DNA from: a virus | Length of the DNA: 64,000 nt | IMG/VR virus record: IMGVR_UViG_3300034013_000676 | Coordinates: 1-64,000 of that record | Reading direction: 5' to 3' (one strand) | Shown here: positions 4,656-62,670 of the stretch, one piece after another | How the letters are laid out: the number at the start of each line of letters is the position of its first letter | Numbering within the stretch: the first letter of the stretch is position 1 | Position numbers and translations under genes: made by a program | The notes under the pieces: model-generated | Database searches by the model: none | What the model saw: only the letters and a program-made list of their open reading frames with translations | What the model was told of the DNA's origin: nothing

Positions 4656-5174
4656 TTATAACCCAGTAATAGCCTGTGTACAAAGATTATCTACATACTC
4701 ATTATACCTTTTACCACTGTGAGCCTTGATATGTTTTATAACTAGTCCCGGTATTAATTGTTTAAACTCAATCATAATTTCATCAATTACCCTCCACATA
4801 TCTTGATTCATAATAGGAGTACCATTCTGTCTCCTCCAGCCTCTACTTTTCCAACCAGCCATCCACTCATTAACTCCTTTAACTACATACTGGGAATCAC
4901 AGAACAATATAATCTTAGGTTTCTCTAATCCCTTGATATCAACCCTTATAGGCCTAAGCTGATAGGGTTGATAAAACTTAAGTAATAATAATAAGCCCTG
5001 AACAAAAGCAGCTATCTCCATTTCATTGTTGGTAGTGTTCTTCTTAACGTTAACTACCTCTTCCTGAATTTTACCATTAAAAACAAGAATAGAGGCTGCT
5101 GCCCCTATTCCTGGATTAGGTCTACATCCACCATCTGTGTAGATATAGATTTTATCTCTAACTTTCTTACTCAT
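4656..5174 (-). CDS. rnhA: ribonuclease HI
   Basis: YTDGGCRPNPG, TNNEME, CDSQYV, HIKAHSG..YNEYVD motifs. Confidence 0.95.
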   Translation of the reverse strand: MSKKVRDKIYIYTDGGCRPNPGIGAAASILVFNGKIQEEVVNVKKNTTNNEMEIAAFVQGLLLLLKFYQPYQLRPIRVDIKGLEKPKIILFCDSQYVVKGVNEWMAGWKSRGWRRQNGTPIMNQDMWRVIDEIMIEFKQLIPGLVIKHIKAHSGKRYNEYVDNLCTQAITGL

Positions 5175-5898
5175 TGATTCCTAAAGCTTTAGCAGTCATT
5201 GGGAAATTAGCTACAAAGATTTTCTTAATTTCCTCTGCAACTTCTCGGTGTTCCAATTGAGCATGTTGGTCACATCGTTGTTGCATATAATGAATCCATG
5301 AACGAATAGAACCATTAAGGTACATCGTAGTTGATGTAGCCATAGGTAAAACCATACGAGCACATTCTTTAGCGACACCAGCTTCTAATAAACCCCCATA
5401 AAGTGCTTGCATAGAATTTACTAAAGCTCCAACTACATAAGATGCTGGTAAATCCTTAGAAAGGTTTTGTAATAACATATCATTAAATACAGATTCGGGT
5501 AAGGTAGGGTCAAATACTTCTTCTGATGATTGGCGATTTTTAGCACCATTTTTACGAAGTTCAATAGGCTCAATATCTGTAACCTCTGCATACCTTTGAG
5601 AAAATTCTTGAGGCTTAATAGACCAGTGACGAAGTATTTGAATACCAATTGCCTTAGAAGTTGTTACCTCTACACAAAGGTTAATCATATCAAATGGTGA
5701 CCAATGTTTGTGATCAATCATATATTTGATTAGCTTATCCGATGTTTCGGTATTAAGTTGGTTTGAAGGATTTGATACACGAGCAATATAAACTAAGAGT
5801 TCTTCTGCTGTTAATTGACCATAGCCTACTAATTCGGGGTCATGGCCTGTTTCACCAGCTACAAAAGGCTTGGTAAGTGAAATTAATCTTACGTTCAT
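5167..5898 (-). CDS. thyX: FAD-dependent thymidylate synthase ThyX
   Basis: ARVSNP, HWSPF, RHWSIKPQEFSQRY (RHR-x7-S-x-R motif with R to W), ECARMVLP, HAQLEHR. Confidence 0.93.
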   Translation of the reverse strand: MNVRLISLTKPFVAGETGHDPELVGYGQLTAEELLVYIARVSNPSNQLNTETSDKLIKYMIDHKHWSPFDMINLCVEVTTSKAIGIQILRHWSIKPQEFSQRYAEVTDIEPIELRKNGAKNRQSSEEVFDPTLPESVFNDMLLQNLSKDLPASYVVGALVNSMQALYGGLLEAGVAKECARMVLPMATSTTMYLNGSIRSWIHYMQQRCDQHAQLEHREVAEEIKKIFVANFPMTAKALGINE

Positions 5899-5920: not shown

Positions 5921-6385
5921 TTAGTAACCACGTTCTTGACGGTCAAAGTTTTCTTTGTTCTTAGCAACATACATAGAGGCTAATTCATCAGCAGTCATCC
6001 CAATTTTTACCATTTGGTTCATAAAGAAATGAAACTGATCCACTATCTCGTATTTAAGTTCTAGTAAATCCTCAGGATGCATATCGGATAGGGGAGTTGT
6101 TTGAGCTTGAGCATAATCTTTCTTCCACCATTTCCAAGCAGCTGAACCAAATCCCTTACCGATACCTCCAACAGCATCAATAGTTTCATGGATTTCATCA
6201 TTTAATGCATGAGCATTTGAAACAAAGAATTCAGCCACATGTCCTATTGAATTATAAGGACTGTAAAAATCTGGGCCCATTACTCTTTCTTGAAGAGATT
6301 TTTGCATAGCCAACATCTCTGTGAATGTTGGGGTAATTGTCAGGTCCAAAGGGAGCTGATGACATTTGTTGTCTGTGTTTGCCAT
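5921..6385 (-). CDS. all-alpha dCTP/dUTP pyrophosphatase, T4 gp56-like
   Basis: MLAMQKSLQ, AWKWWK, HPEDLLELKYEIVDQFHF, KNKENFDRQERGY parallel T4 gp56 as I recall it (WKKWK, SPEDQLEIKFELVDIFHF, KNKHNFERQDNGY). Confidence 0.85.
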   Translation of the reverse strand: MANTDNKCHQLPLDLTITPTFTEMLAMQKSLQERVMGPDFYSPYNSIGHVAEFFVSNAHALNDEIHETIDAVGGIGKGFGSAAWKWWKKDYAQAQTTPLSDMHPEDLLELKYEIVDQFHFFMNQMVKIGMTADELASMYVAKNKENFDRQERGY

Positions 6386-6402
6386 ATTTAATACTTAAGG
6401 GT

Positions 6403-6765
6403 TTATAATTCTAATTTTAACTGGGGTCCAAAACCTTTACGTTGTTCAAGGAATTTTTTAGTTTCTTCAAGGTTAAGGGTGAACATAATATCAAGGAAAA
6501 TACTTTTAAGATTTTCACTTGGGTTTGCATCATAACTAACTTGTTGTATCCTTGATAAATTATGATTAGATATAACTAAATAGTTAGCCTTATGTAAAAG
6601 GATGACAATGTGTTCTACTGAGACTAGGTGGTCCTTGTATATATCTACCAATTCTGAGATTCTAAAAGCCTTGGGGAATCCTATGTTATTAGGTTGAGTT
6701 ATTCTCCTTGATTTTAACAACAACTTAAACCAGATTTTTATCCGGTCTTCTGGGGTATCATACAT
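6403..6765 (-). CDS. hypothetical protein
   Basis: ORF track; first gene of the minus-strand block. Confidence 0.65.
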   Translation of the reverse strand: MYDTPEDRIKIWFKLLLKSRRITQPNNIGFPKAFRISELVDIYKDHLVSVEHIVILLHKANYLVISNHNLSRIQQVSYDANPSENLKSIFLDIMFTLNLEETKKFLEQRKGFGPQLKLEL

Positions 6766-41360: not shown

Positions 41361-41609
41361 ATGAAGTCATTACCATTTGAAGGCACAATAAAAATAGCTG
41401 AACACCAGGAGGAATATGAAACAGTTCATGCACACTTAGGTAGAGATACTACCCATTCTCAAATACCGATAATAACTGTTTGCTTTGAATTAAGTGAAGA
41501 GGAGAAAAAGGTAATATTAGAAACAGGTAAGATATGGTACCAACAATGTTCATTACAAATGCGACCTATGAGCTTATCAGTAATTAAACCCGAATTAAAA
41601 GATAGATAA
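41361..41609 (+). CDS. conserved phage hypothetical protein
   Basis: HQEEY...ITVCFELSEEE...ETGKIW pattern. Confidence 0.7.
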   Translation: MKSLPFEGTIKIAEHQEEYETVHAHLGRDTTHSQIPIITVCFELSEEEKKVILETGKIWYQQCSLQMRPMSLSVIKPELKDR

Positions 41610-41992
41610 TGGCTAAGAAAAGAAAACCCCGAAAAGATATAGTAAAGAAGGTTGATTTACTAAAACCCTTAAGTTCAATTGACATACTTAAATTTGGTAC
41701 AGATGAAGACCCTTGCTTTGGTAAACTTTTTGATTTAACCGAAGACCCATGTAGAAGATGTGGAGATTCCACGCTTTGTCAAATTGTAAGTAACCAAAAG
41801 ACAGTAGCTAAAAGAGAAGAGGTAGAAAGTAATAATCGTTTTAAGGATTTAGAACTTGATGATTTTAAAGCTAAAGCACTAATTAAAAAATTAAGAAAAA
41901 AGAAAACAAGTGACGAGGCTATAAAAAATAAATTGGAAAGAAGGTTCGGCTATGAGCCTAAGAAAATAAAACAATTATTAAAAGGAAAGTAA
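41609..41992 (+). CDS. four-cysteine metal-binding protein
   Basis: C-x11-C-x2-C-x5-C (DPCFGKLFDLTEDPCRRCGDSTLC); TAATG-coupled on both sides. Confidence 0.65.
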   Translation: MAKKRKPRKDIVKKVDLLKPLSSIDILKFGTDEDPCFGKLFDLTEDPCRRCGDSTLCQIVSNQKTVAKREEVESNNRFKDLELDDFKAKALIKKLRKKKTSDEAIKNKLERRFGYEPKKIKQLLKGK

Positions 41993-42930
41993 TGGTAAAT
42001 GAACAGAAGTTAATGAAGGTATTAGAGTACTCAGATTCCCAAACAGCATGGGAACATTTGAATGAGTACTTCTTAAATAACCAGGAAGAGATACTTGAAA
42101 GGGGGGGAGCTAGATATGGTCCCCAATTGGTGTCTTATGATGTAATGATACATATAAGAAAAGCTTGGGTAGATCCTAAGTTTGACTTCGGTAATACTTT
42201 CGGTTACAGGAAACAGAAATGGACATCATTGGTTAACAATTATATCAATATGAATTACCTTGATATCCTAAAGGCTGAAGTATTGGAAAAGGTAACCAAG
42301 AAAAACCAAAGCTATAACCTCTCTATGAGATTTGATAACTCACATGGTTCTGGTAAAAACTGTTTATTATCATTAACTGTATCTAAAAGGATAGGATTAG
42401 AACATCCTATATTCATCTTCAACCTTAGGTCATCTGAGATAACTAAAAGGTTATTATGGGATTTACTTCTAGTACAAAGAATAGCTGAATATATATATGG
42501 AAATAAAGAACATATAAGTATTAAACTATTCTGTGGTAATATGTACCAAAATACAGAGTCTTTTATTATGTATAACAATCATAAAAAGATAAAAGATGTT
42601 CTAATCCCAATGGGGACAAAAACTAATGGTAAACCTAAATACAGTCTATGGCAGGAAAGGGCTACACAGATTTTAGAGGAATTTAAAAATGTGGACCCTA
42701 AGACTGTTAAGTTCAAGGTTCACCTTAGGTCAGTTAATCAAATACAGAGATGTAAGAATGGGCACCCTTTATCTGGTAACCGACCATTATTAGCTAAGGA
42801 ATGTATCATTGGGGAATCATTTAAAGTCCCATACCCAGAAGATTGCATCACAAGTGCAGAAAGAAAAAAATTCAAGAGGGGACACTTAAGAAAACTAAAG
42901 AGAGATGAAGACAGACAAAAGTCCAAGTAA
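41992..42930 (+). CDS. divergent thymidylate-synthase-fold protein A
   Basis: KNCLLSLTV (Cys at the catalytic position) and LRSSEITKRLLWD (RSxD-x7-N/D equivalent); HxY motif absent. Confidence 0.6.
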   Translation: MVNEQKLMKVLEYSDSQTAWEHLNEYFLNNQEEILERGGARYGPQLVSYDVMIHIRKAWVDPKFDFGNTFGYRKQKWTSLVNNYINMNYLDILKAEVLEKVTKKNQSYNLSMRFDNSHGSGKNCLLSLTVSKRIGLEHPIFIFNLRSSEITKRLLWDLLLVQRIAEYIYGNKEHISIKLFCGNMYQNTESFIMYNNHKKIKDVLIPMGTKTNGKPKYSLWQERATQILEEFKNVDPKTVKFKVHLRSVNQIQRCKNGHPLSGNRPLLAKECIIGESFKVPYPEDCITSAERKKFKRGHLRKLKRDEDRQKSK

Positions 42931-43807
42931 TATCCTAAAATACATGGCTGATAAACATGATATTAATCAATTAATAAAGGACTATACTCACCCAGAAGAA
43001 GTAGTCCTTTCAGAGCTAAAACCTAAAAGGAGATTAGCTGGAATATGGCAAGGCATAGATAATTATAAAGATATGACCATGTTAGTTAAAAGGGATGTAA
43101 CATTAAAAATATGTATCCCAGTATGCCCTGTAATACTTCAGGATATTACATTAGCAGATCAACCCTGGTCTGAGGCTCATTTTCAGGAAAGAGTAGGAGG
43201 TCAACCTTTAAATCCGGGTGAGTCCTATAAGATATGGCCTTATGCTAACTTCAATAAAAATACTGAGTTTAGGAAAGATGAAAAATTCGACCATAGTTAT
43301 ATGGAAAGGTTTTGGCCAAAGTTTGCGGGTTATGCCCAATTTGACGGTTTAGGTTTAAAGAATTGTAACGAACTAAGGGAATCAGATAATTTAGGTATTA
43401 GGTTTAAATATGGGGATTATAATGATGTTATCCAACAATTAACCAGAAACACTCTTACAAGGCAAGCTTACCTACCTATATTTTTCCCAGAAGATACCGG
43501 AGCAAAAAACAATATAAGAGTACCATGTACATTGGGTTATTTATTTGAAATTTGGGATGGTAAATTAGATATGACCTATTACATTCGTTCATGTGACGTA
43601 TTCCGTCATTTTCGTAATGATATTTATCTTGCAGGTAGATTGATACAACATACTACTAATATACTATTACTAAATGGAATAGATATTAAACCGGGTGAAT
43701 TGAATATGAAGATTAATAACCTTCATGCATTCGAAAATGATATTTACGCTTTAAAACAAAAAGAGAAACGATTATGCAAAGAATTGAAAGAGAACAATAT
43801 TTCATAG
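42905..43807 (+). CDS. thymidylate-synthase-fold dCMP-modifying enzyme B (dCMP hydroxymethylase-like)
   Basis: TRQAYLPIF, RVPCTLGY, YIRSCDVFRHFRNDIY, NLHAF; Asp at the specificity position as in T4 gp42. Confidence 0.85.
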   Translation: MKTDKSPSNILKYMADKHDINQLIKDYTHPEEVVLSELKPKRRLAGIWQGIDNYKDMTMLVKRDVTLKICIPVCPVILQDITLADQPWSEAHFQERVGGQPLNPGESYKIWPYANFNKNTEFRKDEKFDHSYMERFWPKFAGYAQFDGLGLKNCNELRESDNLGIRFKYGDYNDVIQQLTRNTLTRQAYLPIFFPEDTGAKNNIRVPCTLGYLFEIWDGKLDMTYYIRSCDVFRHFRNDIYLAGRLIQHTTNILLLNGIDIKPGELNMKINNLHAFENDIYALKQKEKRLCKELKENNIS

Positions 43808-44196
43808 AAATTGCTAAAATTACTGCCAAGAGATCAATCTGCCCCCGCAAACAAGTAGGGGCAGTTTTGGTTAAAGATGGGCGTATAATAGCCACGGGGT
43901 ACAATGGAGTATTACCTAAGGAAGAACATAAATTTGCTTTAAACCCCGACGGATCATCAGCTACTATACATGCTGAGGCTAACCTAATAGCTTTTTGTGC
44001 TAAGGAGGGTATACCCACAAAAGGTACAACACTTTATACAACATTATCACCTTGTGATAAATGTGCTGAACTAATCATACAGGCCGGTATTATTAAGGTT
44101 AATTATATTGAGGAATATAGAGATTTAACCGGGGTAATTACATTGGTAAATAATGATATTGATATAAACCTTAAATGGGGAAAAAATGAAATCTGA
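43774..44196 (+). CDS. dCMP deaminase
   Basis: RS.C.RKQVGAVLVKDGRIIATGYNG, HAEAN, SPCDKC. Confidence 0.95.
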   Translation: MQRIEREQYFIEIAKITAKRSICPRKQVGAVLVKDGRIIATGYNGVLPKEEHKFALNPDGSSATIHAEANLIAFCAKEGIPTKGTTLYTTLSPCDKCAELIIQAGIIKVNYIEEYRDLTGVITLVNNDIDINLKWGKNEI

Positions 44197-46462
44197 ATAT
44201 AAACTAATAACCAAGAAAAAGCATGTGGACAAACTCATAACTTATGTAAAGCAAACGGGTTATTGTTCTTTTGACTTTGAGACGAATGCCAGGCCATTTC
44301 ATGATCCCTTATTCTTACCCACCATAATAGGTATATCATTTCAACCAGGCTCTGGGTACATAATACCATTAGCTCATAAGGATTCACCGTTTAAAAGGAA
44401 AGGTATATGGTTGGATATCCTAAAGAAAATAGGTAAAGAGCTAATCTCAAATCCTAGGATTATTAAAGTTGCCTGGAATGCTAGTTTTGAACTTAAGGTA
44501 TTAAAGCTTTATAAAATCGAAGTTAAAGGTAGATTATTCGATGGTATAATGGCTAAATATTTACTTAAAGAGGAACGACCAAATGGTTTAAAAGAACAGG
44601 TAACGTCATTATTACCTTTCTTTGCAGATTATGATTTAAAAGGTAAACCCTCATCAAAGGCTAAACGTGAAAAGATTATAGAATTTTGGACTAACGTTGA
44701 ACTTAATGAACTATCTAAATATTGTGCTCTAGACTGTGACCTAACTCTACGATTAATGATGTTTTATGAGAAACTCTTATTAAAACATGACTTCTATAAA
44801 TTGTTTAGGAATATGTTGATGATGGGCACCAGAGTATTATCAGATTCTGAGTATCACGGTATGCCTGTAGACCAAAAATTCCTTGAAGGCTTAGTAGTAA
44901 CTTATGGTGAGAGGGTAATTGAGTTAGAGAAAGAGCTTTACAAACACCCAATCATATCTAAATTCGAGAAAGGCCTAGTAAAAGACAGGGTTAAAAAATA
45001 TATATTTAAAATCGAAACTGAGATTGAGGATATAGAAATAGAAATGAAGGAGATGGATGCCAATTATAGAGAGTTGGTACTTAGTCGGGATAATGAAGCT
45101 GCCCGTAGGGTTATGAATAAAATAAATGCTAAAGCTAAATTGATTAAATCCCGAGAGGAGAAGATTGATAGGATAATAGCACATGATTTTAGGACTAAAG
45201 GCGAACAAAAGATGTTAGAGAAGGTTAATTTTGCTTCTCCCGAACAAATGGTCCAATTGTTTCATAAATCACCCTATGGGTTTAGGTTTAAAGTAGTTAA
45301 ATACACTGTCGACGAATTTAAAAAAGAAACAGATAGACCTTCAACTGATGAGGAAGTATTAACTGAGTTAATGACTAAGGATAAATCAGGTTTTATCGAA
45401 AGGTTATTAGAATTTAGGGGTACATCTAAATTATACTCTACCTATATCGTTGGTATGAAAGACATCTTATCGGTTGATTCAAGGATACACCCCTCATATT
45501 TATTATTTGGGACAGTTACAGGTAGATTATCATCCATAAACCCTAATTTCCAAAATATACCCCGAGATACAACCAATGCTGATATCAAGAAAATGTTTAT
45601 ACCTCCAAAAAATAAAATATTACTACAGCTGGATTACTCTCAAGCTGAGTTAAGGGTAATGGCGGCACAGGCAAATGAAACAGAGATGCTACGTTGGTTT
45701 AGAGAAGGAAGAGATATTCACTTAGCTGTTGCATGTGATAAAAACAAATGGGATTATGAGTGGGCATTACCTATATATTTAAAAGAGGATAAAGCAGACC
45801 CCAATTACACCAAAATAAAGGTAGAACGTAAATATGCTAAAACAATTAACTTTGGTATTATCTATGGGCAAACAGCAAATAAACTTTCCATTGGAATGGG
45901 TACATCAATCAAGGAGGCTGAGATATATCTAAAGGAATATAACAAACGTTTCCCTAATATCGCTAAATTCATCAAGAAACAAAATGCTTATGCCGAAAGA
46001 CACGGCTTCGTTAAAAATATATTTGGTAGAAAACGAAGGTTACCTAATATTTGGCATTCAGAATGGGGTAAAAAAGCTGAAGCACAAAGACAATCGGTAA
46101 ATGCTCCAATTCAGGGAGCAGCTTCTGATTATACATTGTTCTCATCTATCCTTATTTGGGAAAAAATCAGAAAAGGGGAATTACCAAAAGATATGATACA
46201 ATGTTATACTGTACATGATTCACTAGGATTCTTCTTAGACCCAAAAGATGTTCATTGGGTAGTTCCTATATTAGATGAAATTTGTTCTAACCCCGAAACG
46301 ATGGAATGGTTTGGTTTTCAAATCGATTCGGTTAAAATGCAAGTTGATTTTGAGGTAAGTCATATAAGCTGGGCTAAATTAAGTACATACCATAAGAATG
46401 AAGATTACATTAAACCCACTAGAAACTTCAACAGGGTAGAATATAATAAGCAAGTGGCTTAG
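44186..46462 (+). CDS. polA: family A DNA polymerase with 3'-5' exonuclease
   Basis: FDFET, WNASFE, YCALD; TGRLSS.NPNFQNIP, DYSQAELR, RKYAKTINFGIIYG, NAPIQG.ASD, TVHDS. Confidence 0.97.
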   Translation: MKSEYKLITKKKHVDKLITYVKQTGYCSFDFETNARPFHDPLFLPTIIGISFQPGSGYIIPLAHKDSPFKRKGIWLDILKKIGKELISNPRIIKVAWNASFELKVLKLYKIEVKGRLFDGIMAKYLLKEERPNGLKEQVTSLLPFFADYDLKGKPSSKAKREKIIEFWTNVELNELSKYCALDCDLTLRLMMFYEKLLLKHDFYKLFRNMLMMGTRVLSDSEYHGMPVDQKFLEGLVVTYGERVIELEKELYKHPIISKFEKGLVKDRVKKYIFKIETEIEDIEIEMKEMDANYRELVLSRDNEAARRVMNKINAKAKLIKSREEKIDRIIAHDFRTKGEQKMLEKVNFASPEQMVQLFHKSPYGFRFKVVKYTVDEFKKETDRPSTDEEVLTELMTKDKSGFIERLLEFRGTSKLYSTYIVGMKDILSVDSRIHPSYLLFGTVTGRLSSINPNFQNIPRDTTNADIKKMFIPPKNKILLQLDYSQAELRVMAAQANETEMLRWFREGRDIHLAVACDKNKWDYEWALPIYLKEDKADPNYTKIKVERKYAKTINFGIIYGQTANKLSIGMGTSIKEAEIYLKEYNKRFPNIAKFIKKQNAYAERHGFVKNIFGRKRRLPNIWHSEWGKKAEAQRQSVNAPIQGAASDYTLFSSILIWEKIRKGELPKDMIQCYTVHDSLGFFLDPKDVHWVVPILDEICSNPETMEWFGFQIDSVKMQVDFEVSHISWAKLSTYHKNEDYIKPTRNFNRVEYNKQVA

Positions 46463-49113: not shown

Positions 49114-49993
49114 GGTATTAGTAATTGATGGTAATAATATGTTATATCGAGCATATTATAAATTCGAAAATTTACAAAATAACCATGGCCAATTAACTGG
49201 AGTAATTTATGGGTTCCCTTATATTTTAAGGGGACTCATTAGTTTACACAAACCCCAGAAGGTAGTGGTAGTATTTGATGGAGGCCGAGATAAGAGAAGA
49301 ACTGAGATTTTACCCGAATACAAGAAAAGGGATAAAAAGGCGGGATTTGATGGAGAATCATTTTTCTTTCAAAAAGAGAAGGTTAAGGAATTGTTGGATT
49401 TATTAGGTATTCCAATGATAGAGGTTAAAAAGAGAGAAGCTGATGATATTATCTGGTTGATAGCTCGTAAATTAAAACGGGAAAAACATGAGGTAGTCAT
49501 AGTATCATCGGATAAGGATTTTAACCAATTAATCTGTAAGGGTATTTCAATATGGAATCCTAAAAGTGATAAGCGATATACTCATCTTAATTTGAAACAA
49601 GAAGTTGGATATAATGCTAATCAATGTGTAGATTATTTAATACTTGATGGGGACTCTTCGGATAATATAAAAGGTATGCCTGGGATTGGTCCTAAAAAAG
49701 CTATGGCATTCCTTGATAGAGGGATATCAATTAGAAACTATTTAATTAGTAAAGATAAAGAACTACCCGGACTTAGTAGAAATAAACTAGAACCCGTTTT
49801 CTTATTAAACCGCGAGCTAATTGATATACGTATCTTTTGTAGGAGAAACTTAAAACATTTAAAAGTTAAAGTCCCTAAAGTAACTCTGAAAAAAATAAAT
49901 AAAAAAGAATTAGCCTATTTCTGTGCTAATTATGATATTTCAACATTTGTAAAACCAGACTTCATAGAAACCTTTAACAAGTTATTAAAATGA
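49100..49993 (+). CDS. 5'-3' exonuclease/flap endonuclease
   Basis: IDGNNMLYRAYY, VFDG, EADDII, SSDKDF, GDSSDNIKG.PGIGPKKA. Confidence 0.95.
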   Translation: MSKNKVLVIDGNNMLYRAYYKFENLQNNHGQLTGVIYGFPYILRGLISLHKPQKVVVVFDGGRDKRRTEILPEYKKRDKKAGFDGESFFFQKEKVKELLDLLGIPMIEVKKREADDIIWLIARKLKREKHEVVIVSSDKDFNQLICKGISIWNPKSDKRYTHLNLKQEVGYNANQCVDYLILDGDSSDNIKGMPGIGPKKAMAFLDRGISIRNYLISKDKELPGLSRNKLEPVFLLNRELIDIRIFCRRNLKHLKVKVPKVTLKKINKKELAYFCANYDISTFVKPDFIETFNKLLK

Positions 49994-50673
49994 AACCACA
50001 ACCAATCTTTATAACTGGTACGTCCGGTATCGGTAAAACCACACTTGCTAATTACATAGCAGCAAAATACAGAATACCCTTTATAAATGGGTCTTCCTCT
50101 GTTTTATGGAAAAAATATAATATTAGTTCCCATAAAGAACTACTAGAAATGGGAGTTAATAACCCTAATAAAGGAATAGATTTCCAATTGGAATTACTCA
50201 ATTATAGAGAAGAACTAATAAAGAAGACAGGTAATACTCATTTCGTAACTGATAGGAGTATAATAGATAACCTAGTTTACTTCATGTTTCAAAATTCACC
50301 CTACCTAAGTGAACAAGATACTGTTCATTATATAAATTCCTGTATTGAAAGCTTTCAAAATATATTAGAGTTATGTACTCCAAATGCAAGGTATAAAATG
50401 ATTTACCTTAGTAGAGATTTTTACCCTGATGATGAAATGCCAGTAATAGAAAATGATAGTAAGAGAATCACTAATGAATACTACCAAGATGTAATGTCTG
50501 CTATATTTAACCATGTGATTGATAACAACTTATTGGACTTTAATCATACACCAGAAAAATACCTTAAAATAAGAGATTATAACTGGGATAGGAGATTAGC
50601 TCTAACCGAAACTTTCTTAGAGAAAGAACCTAATATGTTCGATCATTTATATAACAATTGGATTTTGAAATAA
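49990..50673 (+). CDS. deoxynucleoside monophosphate kinase (P-loop)
   Basis: ITGTSGIGKTT, FVTDRSIID, ENDSKR lid. Confidence 0.75.
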   Translation: MKPQPIFITGTSGIGKTTLANYIAAKYRIPFINGSSSVLWKKYNISSHKELLEMGVNNPNKGIDFQLELLNYREELIKKTGNTHFVTDRSIIDNLVYFMFQNSPYLSEQDTVHYINSCIESFQNILELCTPNARYKMIYLSRDFYPDDEMPVIENDSKRITNEYYQDVMSAIFNHVIDNNLLDFNHTPEKYLKIRDYNWDRRLALTETFLEKEPNMFDHLYNNWILK

Positions 50674-51647
50674 TGAAAAAACCACTACTCATAGTTTACA
50701 GTGATATTCACTTTCATTCATATAACCAATTCAATGAAGGTGATAGAAGAGTAAAGGATGCAATCAAAGCCCAGAAGCTAATAAAACTATCTGCTCAAAA
50801 ATACCATGTACCAACTCTATTCTTAGGTGATTTATTTCAAAATGAAAAAGCCCTTACGAACAAATTATTATCATATACATTACCCCACTTCAAAAAGATT
50901 TGGGGTAATAAAGGTGAAAAGACTTATGCAATAACTGGTAACCACGACCAGAGTGAACAAAACACTTTAGACCATGAATCACCATCGTATGTAAAAACCC
51001 TATCTCAGGTATTCCCGGGATTAATATGTATGGACTTCAAATCACTAGAGGCTACTCCCGGAATTTACTTACATGGCATTCCCTATCTAACACATGATAT
51101 TGGTTTATTAAAGGCTATCCAGGATATAAAATTGATAAAAGGTAAAAAGAATATCCTAATGCTTCACACCACTATACCTGGTACAGAGGATACAGATGGT
51201 AGGGTAATAGAAACTGACACAATCAGTTCTAAGGTCCTAAAAATACTAAAGGACTTCGACCTAGTTATCACTGGGCATATACATAAGCCTATGCTTATCT
51301 CCGACAACATACTACAAGTTGGAGCTACCAACCAACAAAGAAAGACAGATAAAAATTGTGATTTAGGTTATTGGATAGTTTACAGTGACCTAAGCCTTAA
51401 ATTCATACCCTTGGATTTACCCAAATTTATTGAATTAGATTATGGTGTAGAAAAACCGGATGGTAAAAACTTCTATTACAATAAAGAAAAAGTTAGTAAG
51501 GAAATTAAGTTTCAAACAGAACCCAGTAAATTTAGTAACCTTAGTGATAGAACTAGTTTAGCAGAGAATTACCTTGAACAAAAGGGTGAGAAAATTAAGA
51601 AGTCTAAGAAGGAAGCATTGATTAAAGCACTTAAAGATACAGAGTAA
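50673..51647 (+). CDS. sbcD: SbcD/Mre11-like metallophosphoesterase nuclease
   Basis: SDIH, GDLF, GNHD, LH, GHIH; TAATG-coupled start at 50673. Confidence 0.9.
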   Translation: MKKPLLIVYSDIHFHSYNQFNEGDRRVKDAIKAQKLIKLSAQKYHVPTLFLGDLFQNEKALTNKLLSYTLPHFKKIWGNKGEKTYAITGNHDQSEQNTLDHESPSYVKTLSQVFPGLICMDFKSLEATPGIYLHGIPYLTHDIGLLKAIQDIKLIKGKKNILMLHTTIPGTEDTDGRVIETDTISSKVLKILKDFDLVITGHIHKPMLISDNILQVGATNQQRKTDKNCDLGYWIVYSDLSLKFIPLDLPKFIELDYGVEKPDGKNFYYNKEKVSKEIKFQTEPSKFSNLSDRTSLAENYLEQKGEKIKKSKKEALIKALKDTE

Positions 51648-53470
51648 TGATAAATCACGAATCAGTTATTATAGAAGGTTTCGGTAGCATCATAAACCAA
51701 ACCGAATTTAAGTTAAATCGCAAAGGTTTAAATGTCATTAGGGGAAAAACGGGAGCAGGTAAAACCACTATACCATCATCATTAACCTGGTGCTGGTTTG
51801 GTACAACTCTAAAAGGTAAGGCAACTGTACAAACATGGGAAGAGATAAGACCTAAGGATTTCAAGGGGACTATGGTTAGGTCAAGTTTTAACAAGGATGG
51901 AGTTAATTATGAGATTATACGTTGTATATCATATAAGAAAACTGTCTTTGGTAAAACTAAAGGAGGCTCAAACCTATTTATCCTGAAAGAAGGTATTCCT
52001 ATAGAAAGCGAAAGGAATAAAACTGATAAGCAGAAATTCATAGAGAACCTATTAGGTTACTCATTTGATTTATTCACAAACAGTATTATATTTGGGCAAA
52101 AGCTTAAAAGGATAATTGAGGAATCAGGCCCAAATAAAAAGAAAATATTTGATGAAGCCTTCGAAGTATTATTCATCGATGAGGCTAAAAAGAAAACAGA
52201 AAAAGAAAGAGATAAGGTCAATGGTTCTTTAAAAGATATAGAGAGCGAATATGACCATATCTCTAAACTTGTTGAAGATGCAATTGAGAATTATGAGGAT
52301 GCCTTAGATTTCGAAAAGAAATTTGAAAAGAACCGAGAAAAGAATCTAGGTAAATTATCAGAAAACAAATCTAATATCACTAAGAAACTTGATAAACTCA
52401 AGGTTGAGATATCAAAACAAAAAATCGATGAAGCTAAGGGGTTAAAGGATAAACTCTCTGAGATAGAAAGAAAAATAGAAAAATCCGAGAAGTCAAATCA
52501 AAGGTTAATAAAGTTAGAAAGGGATATTAATTACCTAGTTAAATCGATAGCTGATAAGGAGAAAGAACTTAAAAATATAAAGAATGGTGAATGCCCTTTA
52601 TGTAAGTCAGAGATAACATCAAAGAAAACCTCACATCTAAGAGATGATATAAAAACAGTTATCAAGGATTTAAAAGTTGACTTAGTTAACCTTCGTAATA
52701 AAAGAGAAAACACCTTTGAAATAGATATGAAGCATCTCAATAAGGATATGGGTAAATTACAGGAAAAACTAGGTAAGATTAAGGAAAAAGAAAAAAACCT
52801 GAAAAACCTTAAAATTAGTGAAAGTAATTATATTGATGAACTCAACTCAATTAAAGCTGATATAAAGGAATTGAATAATGAGAAGCTAGTCATAAAATCT
52901 CCTAAATATAAGGAGAAAATAAGTAAATACAAAAAGAAAAGCAAGAAACTTGCCAAGGAAATGAAATTACTAACCAAAAAGAATGATATATATAATTGGT
53001 TAATAAAAGACCCATTATCTAACAATGGTTTAAAAGCCTACATCTTTGACTCTCTATTGAGTAAAGTTAATGAGAAACTTTGGGATTTACAAAAACACTT
53101 AGGATTTAGAGTTGAATTTGGAATAGACCTTGAATCAAGCAGGAAGGATTTTTACCAAGCTATATACAAAGATGATATGATTATATTGTACACAGATTTA
53201 TCTGGGGGACAAAAACAATTAGTAGATTTCTCAGTTGCTTTAGCAATACATAAGGTTATCAGCTCTATAAGGCCAATGAACATTATATTTTTCGATGAAC
53301 CTTTCGAGGGGTTAGATGTTGACTGTGTTGATATTATCTCAGAACTTATATCGGAAGAAGCTAGCGATAAATGTTTGTATATGATAACCCACCATCCAAA
53401 CTTCAATCCTATTACATCAAACAACATCCATTTTGAGTTAGATAAAAATGGCGCTACAAAAATTAACTAA
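51647..53470 (+). CDS. sbcC: SbcC/Rad50-like SMC ATPase
   Basis: GKTGAGKTT, coiled coil with CPLC zinc hook, LSGGQ, FFDEP, ITH. Confidence 0.93.
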   Translation: MINHESVIIEGFGSIINQTEFKLNRKGLNVIRGKTGAGKTTIPSSLTWCWFGTTLKGKATVQTWEEIRPKDFKGTMVRSSFNKDGVNYEIIRCISYKKTVFGKTKGGSNLFILKEGIPIESERNKTDKQKFIENLLGYSFDLFTNSIIFGQKLKRIIEESGPNKKKIFDEAFEVLFIDEAKKKTEKERDKVNGSLKDIESEYDHISKLVEDAIENYEDALDFEKKFEKNREKNLGKLSENKSNITKKLDKLKVEISKQKIDEAKGLKDKLSEIERKIEKSEKSNQRLIKLERDINYLVKSIADKEKELKNIKNGECPLCKSEITSKKTSHLRDDIKTVIKDLKVDLVNLRNKRENTFEIDMKHLNKDMGKLQEKLGKIKEKEKNLKNLKISESNYIDELNSIKADIKELNNEKLVIKSPKYKEKISKYKKKSKKLAKEMKLLTKKNDIYNWLIKDPLSNNGLKAYIFDSLLSKVNEKLWDLQKHLGFRVEFGIDLESSRKDFYQAIYKDDMIILYTDLSGGQKQLVDFSVALAIHKVISSIRPMNIIFFDEPFEGLDVDCVDIISELISEEASDKCLYMITHHPNFNPITSNNIHFELDKNGATKIN

Positions 53471-53519: not shown

Positions 53520-54062
53520 ATGAGTAACGGTAAAAGAAAAGGTAACAAAGCTGAAAGGGAACTGGCTAAATGGTGGAAAACATGGTCAGGCTTTGAATTT
53601 ACTCGGGTACCAGCTTCTGGGGGATTAAGGTGGAAAACTATGGTTAACACAACCACCTCAGATTTAATATGTGCTGATGACCGACACAATAGAAGGTTTC
53701 AATTCTCAATTGAATCTAAATCCTATAAGGATATAAACTTCGAACATCTTATATTGGGTAACAAGAACTCAGCAATAAGGAATTTCTGGGACCAATGTAA
53801 TACAGATGCAGAAAGAAGTAATAAGGTACCCATACTCTTTATGAGGTACAATGGTATGTCTAAAAATACCTGGTTTGTAGTAATGCCTAGTTACGTATAT
53901 AACCTATTCTTTCCTACACTAGTTAAATTTGATCACAATAGGTTTGTAGTAAGTGGACCTGATAACATTGTCATCATGAACTCAAATGATTTACTAAAAA
54001 CAGATTATATGAAACTTCACTTAACCCTTAAAAAATTAAGAAAGAATGACAAAGCAGAATAA
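53520..54062 (+). CDS. Holliday junction resolvase (PD-(D/E)xK, Hjc-like)
   Basis: KGNKAERELAK, RVPASGG, SDL, IESK, WDQ. Confidence 0.85.
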   Translation: MSNGKRKGNKAERELAKWWKTWSGFEFTRVPASGGLRWKTMVNTTTSDLICADDRHNRRFQFSIESKSYKDINFEHLILGNKNSAIRNFWDQCNTDAERSNKVPILFMRYNGMSKNTWFVVMPSYVYNLFFPTLVKFDHNRFVVSGPDNIVIMNSNDLLKTDYMKLHLTLKKLRKNDKAE

Positions 54063-60308: not shown

Positions 60309-60899
60309 ATGGCAAAAGAATCCTACAAGAACAAGGAAGCGGCAGTAAAAGCCCAAGAAGCTCAAAAAGAAGTAGTAGTAACAGCTAAGGCTGCATTAAC
60401 ATCTTACCTCAAGAAAAACAAACTTGAGAGAGATAAGGACTACTCAAAAGACAAAAAGCATGGTAAGGCGTTAAAAACGTTAAACCTTGAAATCGAGAAG
60501 GCTAATGAGAAATTAGTTGAAATCAATAAAATTACCGATTCATTCAAAGCTGAGAAAGCCGGTAAAGGTTCAAAAGACAAGGCAGCAGCAAAAGACTCTT
60601 CATCTAAAGGGGCTAAAACTACTCACACATATCCTGAAGGCTTAACTTCAGCTGAGAAGAAAAAATGGAGAGTAGCCGCAAGAAAAGGTGTTACAGACGC
60701 TAAAGAACTTTTGAAAGCTGCTAAGGCTGACAAGGTTGAAAAGGTTAAAAAAGAGAAGGCTCCTAAGGAAGAGGTTAAATCTGAAAAAGTTAAGGATACG
60801 AAAAAATCCAAAACTAAAGAAACCCCTAAGGAAGAGAAATCTTCTAAGAAAGACAAAAAAGCCAAAGCTAAGAAAGGTAAAAGCTCCAAAAACGACTAA
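60309..60899 (+). CDS. histone H1-like Lys/Ala-rich protein
   Basis: Very Lys-rich; YPEGLTSAEKKKWRVAARK core; own promoter motif and terminator. Confidence 0.75.
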   Translation: MAKESYKNKEAAVKAQEAQKEVVVTAKAALTSYLKKNKLERDKDYSKDKKHGKALKTLNLEIEKANEKLVEINKITDSFKAEKAGKGSKDKAAAKDSSSKGAKTTHTYPEGLTSAEKKKWRVAARKGVTDAKELLKAAKADKVEKVKKEKAPKEEVKSEKVKDTKKSKTKETPKEEKSSKKDKKAKAKKGKSSKND

Positions 60900-61270: not shown

Positions 61271-62074
61271 ATGGAAATACAAAAAAATATAAGCATACAA
61301 CTATTCGATGAGGAAGGTAGAATACTTTCTGAACGATTAGTAAAGCAGGACCCTGAATTTGCAGTAGGTCCTAAAGATAAACATGAAGGTCCTTTGAGAT
61401 TACAGTTTACCTTACTAGAATCGGGTGATGTAGACAAAGCTATTACCTACCTTCAAAAGCTTAGTGGGGCATTACCATTAACATCACCTAACAAACCCAA
61501 AGGAAGAGTACCTGGTGCTAAGATAACTGCTGAAGATGTTAATAGGTATGAAGTCTTATTAAATGAGGCAATCACACTATATGGGGATAACCAAGATAAA
61601 CTAATCACCTTCTTAAGGGAAATGGGTTATCTATTCGTAACTGGTGAGTTCCTTAAATTGGTTATACCAGAAACCTATGAAATCAGGGAACGTTATCTTA
61701 AGGATTACCAATTCTTAGTTAAACGTATCAAAGAGGCTAAAGACCCAAGGAATGATAAGTTTGACCCAGTACTAATATTTGGTATCAAAATCATTGAAGA
61801 GAGAAGTCCTAGAATCCTTACTATTATGAACGGTGAAGTAAGTAAAAGGGTAGTTGACTTACCTACTGAAAAAGCTATGACAGTTAAATCAACCAACTTG
61901 TTAAAGTACCCAGCTTATATGACAGAAGAGGAAAGATACAAATTCGGTATAGAGCACAGAACCTTATTTAAAGACCCAACTAAGAAACCTACTAAGTTTT
62001 ACCTACGATGGTATAAAGATGTTAAAGTAGGTGATGAGCTTAAGTTTAATGTTAAGGCAAGGTTAACTGAGTAA
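61271..62074 (+). CDS. hypothetical protein
   Basis: 267-aa ORF. Confidence 0.75.
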   Translation: MEIQKNISIQLFDEEGRILSERLVKQDPEFAVGPKDKHEGPLRLQFTLLESGDVDKAITYLQKLSGALPLTSPNKPKGRVPGAKITAEDVNRYEVLLNEAITLYGDNQDKLITFLREMGYLFVTGEFLKLVIPETYEIRERYLKDYQFLVKRIKEAKDPRNDKFDPVLIFGIKIIEERSPRILTIMNGEVSKRVVDLPTEKAMTVKSTNLLKYPAYMTEEERYKFGIEHRTLFKDPTKKPTKFYLRWYKDVKVGDELKFNVKARLTE

Positions 62075-62143: not shown

Positions 62144-62284
62144 ATGGGAAATCCTAAAATCGAACCTAAAATAGTAAAACTGGAAACTGTATCAAAAACC
62201 CTAAATGGTTGCATGGTGACAATGGGTATAATACTTTGTATAGGTTGCTTAGCAATCCTATTATCTATACTCTTTTCAAACTAA
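62144..62284 (+). CDS. small membrane peptide (not in ORF track)
   Basis: MGNPKIEPKIVKLETVSKTLNGCMVTMGIILCIGCLAILLSILFSN; alternative start 62108; TAATG-coupled to the NUDIX gene. Confidence 0.55.
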   Translation: MGNPKIEPKIVKLETVSKTLNGCMVTMGIILCIGCLAILLSILFSN

Positions 62285-62670
62285 TGGCACTAAAAAGAGT
62301 ATGGTTAATATTAAAGGTGGAAGGAACTGATAAGCTCCTTATCCTTAAAAGAAGTAAGAGCTCCAATAACCCCAAACAATGGGATTTTATAGGAGGCTCA
62401 TCCCAAGGTAAAATTAAACCGAGAAAACTTATCAGGAAAGAATCCCTTGAAGAAATCGGTTTTATCCCTAGGATGAGCCTCCTATCAACTTTCTATAAAA
62501 AGGGAAGTGTCTATCACTATTATATTGGGGTAATCAAGAAAACAGAGTTAATTAATATCCAATTGAATTATGAACATAGTAAATTTGATACGCTAGAATT
62601 ACATAAGCTACGTAAAAAAAGGAAACTCCATCACTCTGTTAAGTTTTATTTGTCAAATGTAAATAACTAA
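62284..62670 (+). CDS. NUDIX hydrolase with a degenerate Nudix box
   Basis: LLILKRS, WDFIGG...IRKESLEEIGF, LNYEHS; ATG at 62284 preferred. Confidence 0.8.
   Translation: MALKRVWLILKVEGTDKLLILKRSKSSNNPKQWDFIGGSSQGKIKPRKLIRKESLEEIGFIPRMSLLSTFYKKGSVYHYYIGVIKKTELINIQLNYEHSKFDTLELHKLRKKRKLHHSVKFYLSNVNN

Follow-up and report, generated by a model that had tools for sequence, protein, structure and literature searches.

A pair of adjacent genes encoding proteins with a thymidylate synthase (TS) fold, TS-A and TS-B, was found in a 64,000-nucleotide stretch of phage DNA (positions 1 to 64,000 of IMG/VR record IMGVR_UViG_3300034013_000676, referred to here as the window). Comparison with other phages demonstrated that the two genes form a widespread cassette, already present but unrecognized in the deposited genomes of cultured phages, and suggested that the conserved functional unit is the pair and not TS-B alone. 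By analogy with characterized systems, we favor, with some reservation, a reading in which the locus would form the center of a pre-replicative pathway by which deoxycytidine (dC) is replaced or supplemented by C5-modified dC and in which TS-A and TS-B would act as one functional unit; production of an altered cytosine by the phage is thus probable. The complete phage genome is 77,888 bp long and has direct terminal repeats; the window, its first 64 kb, has a GC content of ∼33%. The sequence was present, as contigs, in four lake-water metagenomes from three independent studies (word share of ≥0.55).

TS-B, a protein of 300 amino acids (aa) encoded at positions 42905 to 43807 on the plus strand, is a full-length member of the ThyA family and belongs to a clade of its own. 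It matched the Pfam family PF00303 (Thymidylat_synt) at 1.5e-8 with a score of 34.6 bits against a cutoff of 24.3 (35.3 bits in a scan of its own genome) and phrog_160, "thymidylate synthase," at 1e-28, and it scored far below the cutoffs of the NCBIfam ThyA equivalogs. An AlphaFold2 (AF2) model with a predicted local distance difference test (pLDDT) value of 81 superposed on ThyA structures over 220 to 236 residues with a Z score of ∼17.8. When the PDB was searched with a family profile, sequence matches were obtained to MilA (2.5e-9), the N229D variant of L. casei TS (1.9e-8), and AfhB (1e-6), with the alignments to solved enzymes covering the catalytic C-terminal half only.

Active-site residues were compared by aligning TS-B orthologs, 77 metagenomic and 8 from cultured phages, to a profile. 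TS-B carries the motifs VPC(208)TL and R228-S-C-D231...D239, and when it was aligned with L. casei TS and with MilA by HMMER, D239 fell on N229 of the L. casei enzyme, which is N177 in E. coli. In E. coli numbering, the key residues read R126, Q127, R143, C146, T147, R166, S167, D169, R172, H173, D177, H207, and F209; Arg205 corresponds to position 143, C208 to 146, R228 to 166, D231 to 169, His235 to G173, and D239 to 177, and H274-A-F276 occupies the site of H207-x-Y209. A full TS fold with catalytic Cys146, R166, D169, and H207 is present. R126, R143, C146, R166, D169, D177, and H207 were found in 77/77 metagenomic orthologs and H173 in 75/77, and Cys146, R166, D169, and H207, together with Asp at 177 and Arg at 143, were also kept in the 8 cultured orthologs.

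Asp177 is an established dCMP (deoxycytidine monophosphate) determinant in TS-fold enzymes (PMC8670742, PMC13326640), and TS-B was consequently classed as a cytosine-type TS. The signature of ThyA enzymes specific for dUMP (deoxyuridine monophosphate), Asn177, Leu143, His147, and Gly173, was replaced in TS-B by D, R, T, and H; in the same alignment, the row for a classical ThyA used as a control, Triscuit gp67, was R R L C H ... D L G F N H Y. With T4 gp42-type hydroxymethylases TS-B shares Asp at N177 (D239, in 77/77 relatives), but the acidic residue at position 143 of T4-like dCMP hydroxymethylases (PMC13326640) is Arg205 in TS-B. For the Xp12 and PaMx74 enzymes, which are proven 5-methyl-dCMP synthases, the corresponding row was R R N C P ... 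D V G Y D H Y; TS-B has neither the Xp12-type motif (N143, P147, VGLPYD) nor membership in that clade, the two enzymes matching the TS-B profile at 3e-14 and 2e-12, respectively, compared with 1e-78 or better for members of the TS-B clade. The D169N substitution that is diagnostic of 5-hydroxy-dCMP synthases (PMC13326640) was also absent, with Asp231 present in 77/77 orthologs. On these alignments TS-B falls in a separate clade, set apart from the ThyA, T4-type, Xp12-type, and 5-hydroxy-dCMP synthase signatures, and it is predicted to be a dCMP-specific C5 one-carbon transferase.

The TS-B orthologs fell into two subtypes, Q127/T147/F209 and K127/S147/Y209. The window phage belongs to the former, as does every example from cultured actinophages and from cultured phages of proteobacteria. 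A deaminase gene followed TS-B in 17/18 loci of the F209 subtype and in 5/59 loci of the Y209 subtype, these being related loci and not independent events. This distribution suggests that the two subtypes represent two pathway variants.

TS-A (positions 41992 to 42930, plus strand, 312 aa) belongs to an unannotated viral family with a compact TS fold. No match to Pfam, NCBIfam, or PDB sequences was detected, even when a 59-sequence profile was compared with the PDB at E ≤ 10, and there was a weak match to one PHROG of unknown function. An AF2 model derived from the family alignment had a pLDDT of 93.7 and a predicted template modeling (pTM) score of 0.89. Foldseek searches with this model retrieved TS-superfamily chains only, with T4 dCMP hydroxymethylase (dCH), AfhB, and MilA at the top (probability 1.00). 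VIA-align gave Z scores of 13.6 for AfhB (182 residues; root mean square deviation of 3.8), 12.6 for MilA, and ∼10 for classical ThyA (∼170 residues), and 396 TS-superfamily chains had a Z score of ≥8. In the ESM Atlas, TS-A fell among viral "hypothetical" clusters whose named structural neighbors were TS-domain proteins carrying PF00303. The superposition of TS-A on ThyA extends over ∼170 to 180 residues, compared with 220 to 236 for TS-B, and TS-A lacks ∼50 to 60 residues of ThyA-aligned structure that are present in TS-B. The TS fold that had been proposed for both proteins from the DNA letters was thus recovered, by the AF2 model and Foldseek for TS-A and by Pfam and the Z score of the model for TS-B.

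The motifs of TS-A are KNC(124)LL and R146-S-S-E149...D157, for which the candidate assignments are Cys124 as the nucleophile, Arg146 as R166, Glu149 as D169, Arg153 as G173, and Asp157 as N177, with Lys-Arg at the position of Leu172-Gly173 of ThyA. Spacing between the Cys and the Arg is 22 in TS-A and 20 in ThyA and TS-B, and that between the Arg and the Asp is 11 in both proteins, as from R166 to N177 in E. coli ThyA. The original prediction had listed the Cys in both open reading frames (ORFs; KNCLL and VPCTL), the Asp 11 residues after the Arg, and departures from gp42 at G173 (His235 in TS-B and Arg153 in TS-A) and at the HxY motif (H274-A-F276 in TS-B), and all of these features were confirmed. 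A BLASTP comparison of TS-A with TS-B detected no match. An hhalign comparison of the two families brought C124/C208, R146/R228, E149/D231, and D157/D239 into register with a nonsignificant E value of 0.17; at the sequence level, membership of TS-A in the TS superfamily was thus not recovered from Pfam, NCBIfam, the PDB, or hhalign against the TS-B family. The D169N marker of 5-hydroxy-dCMP synthases was absent from TS-A, which has Glu149.

Conservation was assessed in 97 diverse full-length members of the TS-A family with ≤50% identity and in a set of 59 relatives; the family comprised 196 clusters at 50% identity among 1.84 billion representatives. Y72, K76, W77, Y84, F114, C124, R146, E149, R153, and D157 were each present in 88 to 97 of the 97 relatives, and C124, R146, and D157 were invariant in the set of 59 as well. 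The modeled structure indicates that TS-A is a compact TS-fold protein which keeps the nucleophile Cys, the phosphate-binding Arg, and the cytosine-type Asp, and the pattern of conservation, as read from the alignment, is that of an enzyme and not of a decaying paralog. The observation is far beyond chance, the motif residues being invariant across the IMG/VR loci that encode TS-A relatives. An unannotated stretch (6001 to 6762 of the extracted locus) of the human-gut "Phage DP SC_6_H4_2017" (MT121964.1), a record in which only two genes are annotated, was observed to encode a 37%-identical TS-A homolog; as this is a human-fecal record, the TS-A family also occurs in gut viromes.

The pair was then followed across metagenomic and cultured phages. 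A total of 318 loci in IMG/VR encode TS-A relatives, and synteny was counted in 80 of these (71 distinct). A B-type gene followed the A gene in 78/80 loci; one of the two others was truncated, and the second had too little room between A and PolA, the family A DNA polymerase. Every cultured example had PolA downstream, as had 79/80 of the related loci. The order in related loci was helicase, 4-Cys protein, pyrophosphatase, A, B-type TS, sometimes a deaminase, and PolA. Members of the TS-B clade were found in cultured phages at 36 to 45% identity, and an A-like gene was present just upstream of B in 9/9 cultured phages sampled, with one small gene intervening in Triscuit. These phages were Brevundimonas Strzyga, Gordonia HippoPololi, Yersinia P744, Streptomyces KimJongPhill, Microbacterium Triscuit, Mycobacterium JacoRen57 and Muddy, Serratia Tlacuache, and Clostridium CPD4. 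The cultured carriers of the pair span five host phyla. Co-occurrence of A and B in relatives, on which the original prediction had staked its claim, was accordingly upheld in both the metagenomic and the cultured sets.

The A homologs of cultured phages are 250 to 350 aa long and are annotated as "hypothetical protein" or, in Yersinia phage P744, as "pyrimidine hmase synthase," a label that appears twice in deposited annotations of A-family records. They share a motif consisting of Cys, a hairpin, R-[ST]-x-[EY], seven residues, and Asp. Individually these proteins matched the TS-A profile at 9e-12 to 0.4, and an alignment of all nine matched the TS-A family in hhalign with a probability of 97.8% and an E value of 1.3e-12 over 180 columns. 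The remote actinophage homologs keep the Cys, Arg, and Asp; the Glu is not kept. The A and B genes of cultured phages often overlap by 1 to 4 nucleotides (nt), and the constant module comprises a deoxynucleoside monophosphate (dNMP) or thymidylate kinase, a MazG/dUTPase-type pyrophosphatase, A, B, a deaminase in some cases, and Pol I. In Muddy, the minus strand (locus L095, 6732 to 9943) encodes thymidylate kinase gp49, dUTPase gp48, A-like gp47 (annotated as hypothetical), B-type gp46 (annotated as thymidylate synthase), gp45 (180 aa of unknown function), and Pol I gp44. In Triscuit (locus L089, 2491 to 5568), A-like gp64 and B-type gp66 are followed by the classical Asn177 ThyA gp67 and then by a deaminase; the presence of gp67 alongside the pair indicated that A and B are not the thymidylate synthase of this phage. 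Fusions of A to B were absent from 148 A-family representatives, including members of 322 to 483 aa, and no B-type or Pfam domain was found in these proteins. The 333- to 339-aa hypothetical proteins encoded upstream of the Xp12 and PaMx74 enzymes were considered as A-like candidates and were rejected, having no profile match and no motif.

An explanation that dispenses with catalysis by TS-A is that only known chemistry is involved: TS-B by itself would serve as a standard dCMP hydroxymethylase or 5-methyl-dCMP synthase and give plain 5-hydroxymethylcytosine (5hmC) or 5-methylcytosine (5mC), with TS-A as an accessory (a scaffold, a regulator, or a tether to the replisome or to a complex synthesizing deoxynucleoside triphosphates). 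TS-B is full length with every residue for TS-type catalysis, no downstream decorating enzymes were detected, and TS-fold paralogs can be pseudo-enzymes. Moreover, TS-A has a basic C-terminal tail with the motif YPEDCITSAERKKFKR (nt 42832 to 42879), which may be a short docking peptide. A strict regular expression recovered this motif in TS-A only; a looser expression gave one clear second copy, YPEGLTSAEKKKWR (60630 to 60671), within a lysine-rich ORF (60309 to 60899), recurrence on another phage protein being what a docking peptide might exhibit. A looser copy, YPAYMTEEERYKF, was present near the end of ORF 61271 to 62074. However, the tail motif is missing from about half of the TS-A family, and the Cys, Arg, and Asp of TS-A are kept in ∼96/97 diverged relatives and the Glu in 93/97, which is hard to explain for a scaffold; the remote actinophage homologs also keep the catalytic residues apart from the Glu. 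We consider this explanation unlikely.

In the window, TS-A and TS-B lie within a co-directional run of plus-strand genes (41.6 to 46.5 kb), in the order 4-Cys protein, TS-A, TS-B, deaminase, and PolA, in which each start overlaps or abuts the preceding stop; the ORF list agreed with the coordinates, overlaps, and operon order claimed at the outset. The public gene call for TS-B starts at Met14 (42944) and gives a protein of 287 aa, with which the 26-nt overlap with TS-A becomes a 13-nt gap; the residues ahead of Met14 were weakly conserved among the closest relatives. The 4-Cys protein (41609 to 41992, plus strand, 127 aa) has four clustered Cys residues and a Lys-rich C-terminal half and matched no Pfam, PHROG, or NCBIfam family. 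It was present in 73/80 related loci, usually 1 to 2 kb upstream of TS-A, so that its place in the cassette held as regards conserved proximity but not as regards contact, as a pyrophosphatase gene lies between it and A in most relatives; no observation connected it with the chemistry. The deaminase (43774 to 44196, plus strand) is a zinc enzyme of the dCMP/cytidine-deaminase family (PF00383, 5.4e-25; phrog_174, 7.5e-46; NCBIfam ComEB, 1e-30) and is translationally coupled to TS-B and to PolA (ORF 44186 to 46462, plus strand), the conserved downstream anchor of the cassette. The substrate of the deaminase may be dCMP or a dC nucleotide substituted at position 5.

Other nucleotide-metabolism genes lie at a distance. 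The flavin-dependent thymidylate synthase ThyX (5167 to 5898, minus strand; PF02511, 1.4e-40 and 5.2e-39) supplies dTMP (deoxythymidine monophosphate), and neither TS-A nor TS-B is therefore needed for this purpose, as had been supposed. An all-alpha dimeric dUTPase/dCTPase-family pyrophosphohydrolase (5921 to 6385, minus strand) matched PF08761 (6.5e-8), a family that also includes the T4 gp56 dCTPase, and phrog_173 (3e-23). A 40%-identical ortholog lies directly upstream of TS-A in one relative (L012), and 65/80 relatives have at that site a gene of 194 to 310 aa with no Pfam match and with acidic motifs that were read as MazG-like. The pyrophosphatase of the window likely supplies dCMP and dUMP and depletes dCTP. 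Together with RNase H (4656 to 5174), ThyX and the pyrophosphatase form a minus-strand nucleotide-metabolism cluster ∼36 kb from the A/B cassette. A P-loop kinase (49990 to 50673, plus strand), a candidate dNMP kinase, matched AAA_28 (4e-9), dNK (7.5e-6; 26.3 bits, just under the 27-bit cutoff), and phrog_2107, "thymidylate kinase" (3.7e-10); in cultured cassettes, a thymidylate-kinase-like gene adjoins the pyrophosphatase. No match to dihydrofolate reductase (DHFR; PF00186) was detected in the complete genome, with the positive control found in 10/14 genomes. DHFR was absent from the A+B genomes examined and present in Xp12 and PaMx74, a pattern that is compatible with a chemistry which does not oxidize folate and is a correlation only. 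Neither a carbamoyltransferase nor a DNA C5-methyltransferase was found in the complete genome.

Several further genes were noted. A Mre11/SbcD-like phosphoesterase, a Rad50/SbcC-like ATPase, and a PDDEXK nuclease (50658 to 53470 and 53520 to 54062) follow the replication genes and form an ordinary recombination module. A NUDIX hydrolase, another nucleotide-pool enzyme, is encoded at 62209 to 62670 (Pfam, 1.2e-5). Beyond the window, at 66051 to 66500 of the genome, lies a gene whose product is homologous to endonuclease V of T4, a pyrimidine-dimer N-glycosylase (phrog_1183, 2.4e-34).

In the favored pathway of dC modification, by analogy with T4 and Xp12, the pyrophosphatase at 5921 to 6385 would convert dCTP to dCMP. 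Cys208 of TS-B would then attack C6 of dCMP, with Asp239 reading the cytosine, and the one-carbon unit of methylene-tetrahydrofolate would be transferred to C5 to yield 5-hydroxymethyl- or 5-methyl-dCMP. The P-loop kinase and a host nucleoside diphosphate kinase would generate the triphosphate for the phage PolA, and the coupled deaminase would divert part of the (modified) dC pool to dU/dT while ThyX makes dTMP. TS-A may be a second catalytically competent TS-fold enzyme that acts on a cytosine mononucleotide and works with TS-B. It could process the product of TS-B by substitution or reduction at the 5-CH2 group, passing through the same type of Cys-C6 adduct and an exocyclic methylene, or it could be the partner subunit of a mixed dimer with TS-B; action on the product or an intermediate of TS-B, or a mixed dimer, would be most economical because the residues for the Cys-C6 adduct are kept. 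Prediction of a complex of A with B from family alignments gave a score of 0.00 in two runs without controls, which counts neither for nor against the heterodimer proposed at the outset.

A more specific proposal is that A and B make a C5-substituted deoxycytidylate other than the 5-methyl, 5-hydroxymethyl, or 5-hydroxy form, with TS-B installing the one-carbon unit and TS-A, by way of a Cys-C6 adduct of its own, regenerating the exocyclic methylene and capturing a different nucleophile or reductant. Such a folate-sparing chemistry would fit the absence of DHFR, and the proposal, which we hold to be doubtful, would imply an undescribed DNA base, made wholly at the mononucleotide level, in phages of at least five host phyla, including Muddy.

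The coupled deaminase also raises the prospect of a thymidylate bypass, in which TS-B methylates dCMP, the deaminase turns 5-methyl-dC into dT nucleotides, TS-A assists the flux, and virion DNA is canonical. The same route has been proposed for Xp12, 5mC-selective deaminases adjoining Asp-type TS genes are documented (bioRxiv 10.1101/2024.12.05.627091), and both the translational coupling to TS-B and the strong linkage of the deaminase to the F209 subtype would be expected. Such a bypass would, however, be redundant with ThyX here and with the classical ThyA beside A and B in Triscuit, most Y209-subtype relatives have no adjacent deaminase, DHFR is missing, unlike in Xp12 and PaMx74, and full 5mC substitution accompanies this route in Xp12 (bioRxiv 10.1101/2024.12.05.627091); this makes the bypass an improbable account of the locus. 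Also very unlikely is that the two enzymes are independent, with TS-A a cofactor-switched hydroxylase-like enzyme comparable to the flavin-dependent AfhB and TS-B making another product without coupling: the better structural matches of TS-A to AfhB and MilA than to ThyA and its missing ThyA-aligned segment point this way, but the D169N signature (PMC13326640) is replaced by an invariant Glu, the near-obligate adjacency of A and B across host phyla argues for joint function, and a glycosyltransferase to act on a 5-hydroxyl group was not found.

Several observations weigh against the dC-modification pathway with a catalytic pair. The likeness of TS-A to TS consists of a predicted structure and a short, nonsignificant profile alignment. 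In TS-B, the folate-side residues are remodeled (L172R, G173H, and L143R) and the N-terminal half cannot be aligned to ThyA by sequence, so that its use of folate is deduced from the fold only. The assignment of the kinase at 49990 to 50673 as a dNMP kinase for the modified nucleotide is weak. As first noted for the window, no glycosyltransferase was present among the Pfam- and PHROG-scanned ORFs, and no carbamoyltransferase or other DNA-decorating enzyme was detected there, so the modification may be ordinary 5mC or 5hmC. No paper characterizing TS-A or the TS-B clade was found, nor measured chemistry for any member, and no literature report of odd DNA was found for the SEA-PHAGES or therapeutic carriers, which have been handled for years, this last point being absence of evidence only.

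To our knowledge, a single enzyme of the TS superfamily makes the starting nucleotide for each pyrimidine hypermodification so far described in phages. The second TS-fold family, tied here to a separate clade of cytosine-type TS across hundreds of phage genomes, points either to a step that the accepted scheme lacks or to a new reaction carried out on the TS scaffold, for which the flavin-dependent 5-hydroxy-dCMP synthases are a recent precedent. The pair can be tested directly in cultured carriers, including Muddy, many Gordonia, Streptomyces, and Microbacterium SEA-PHAGES isolates, P744, Tlacuache, and Strzyga. Modified DNA alters restriction and CRISPR sensitivity and sequencing behavior and may alter innate-immune sensing of therapeutic phages, and enzymes of this kind are now tools for methylome sequencing.

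A close parallel is the pre-replicative T4 hydroxymethylcytosine pathway, which consists of the gp56 dCTPase/dUTPase, gp42 dCMP hydroxymethylase, gp1 dNMP kinase, cd deaminase, and td. The two systems share their logic and their protein families: an all-alpha pyrophosphatase, an enzyme of TS fold in which N177 is Asp, a kinase, a deaminase of the dCMP family, and a thymidylate synthase encoded separately (ThyX in this phage). T4 dCH was among the top structural matches of TS-A. They differ in that T4 has one cytosine-type TS-fold enzyme and this phage two, in the Arg of TS-B at L143 (Asp/Glu in T4) and its His at G173, in the lack of a detected glucosyltransferase, in the arrangement of the genes as one cassette beside PolA, and in the failure of the TS-B sequence profile to reach T4 dCH at E ≤ 0.01.

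TS-A shares its compact TS fold with AfhB of phage HY126 (PDB 9iqu/9iqc), its best structural match, and with RB69 gp48 and DLP3 gp80. These flavin/O2-dependent 5-hydroxy-dCMP synthases, which act on dCMP, are proof that cofactor and chemistry can both change on a TS fold (PMC13326640). Unlike that group, however, TS-A and TS-B have no D169N substitution (Glu in A and Asp in B), TS-A has no sequence match to AfhB, and no arabinosyl- or glycosyltransferase genes were found here; for AfhB-type enzymes, no pairing with a further protein of TS fold is reported. MilA, the CMP (cytidine monophosphate) 5-hydroxymethylase of mildiomycin biosynthesis (PDB 5b6d/5jnh), is the best PDB sequence match of TS-B and the second-best structural match of TS-A and has Asp177 and Arg172, as does TS-B. 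Unlike TS-B, it has Asp143 and Gly173, acts on a ribonucleotide in bacterial secondary metabolism, and has no A-type partner.

The Xp12/PaMx74 module comprises an Asp177 TS homolog that was shown to make 5-methyl-dCMP (5mdCMP), a 5mC-selective deaminase, and DHFR (bioRxiv 10.1101/2024.12.05.627091). As in the window, the TS homolog lies just upstream of the deaminase and near a pyrophosphatase and PolA, whereas the Xp12 and PaMx74 enzymes keep the classical motif (N143, P147, V172, G173, Y176, and D177), and a HAD hydrolase and no A-type gene lies upstream, with DHFR downstream. An Asp-type TS that neighbors a deaminase and PolA has been published as a marker of phage DNA with modified cytosine (bioRxiv 10.1101/2024.12.05.627091; eLife PMC8670742), and in metaviromes this gene neighborhood goes with DNA that is fully cytosine modified; 104/149 deaminases on modified contigs were within 3 kb of a TS, 85% of these TS being of the cytosine type, and 2/7 such TS homologs gave no 5-methyl-dC when expressed alone (bioRxiv 10.1101/2024.12.05.627091). 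The original prediction of a new cytosine-modification system must therefore be qualified: the pair is widespread in cultured phages and this neighborhood has been published, but the publications consulted do not mention a second TS-fold partner, which stands as an uncharacterized component. The best reading of the locus is a T4/Xp12-like dC-replacement pathway with an added, uncharacterized TS-fold enzyme.

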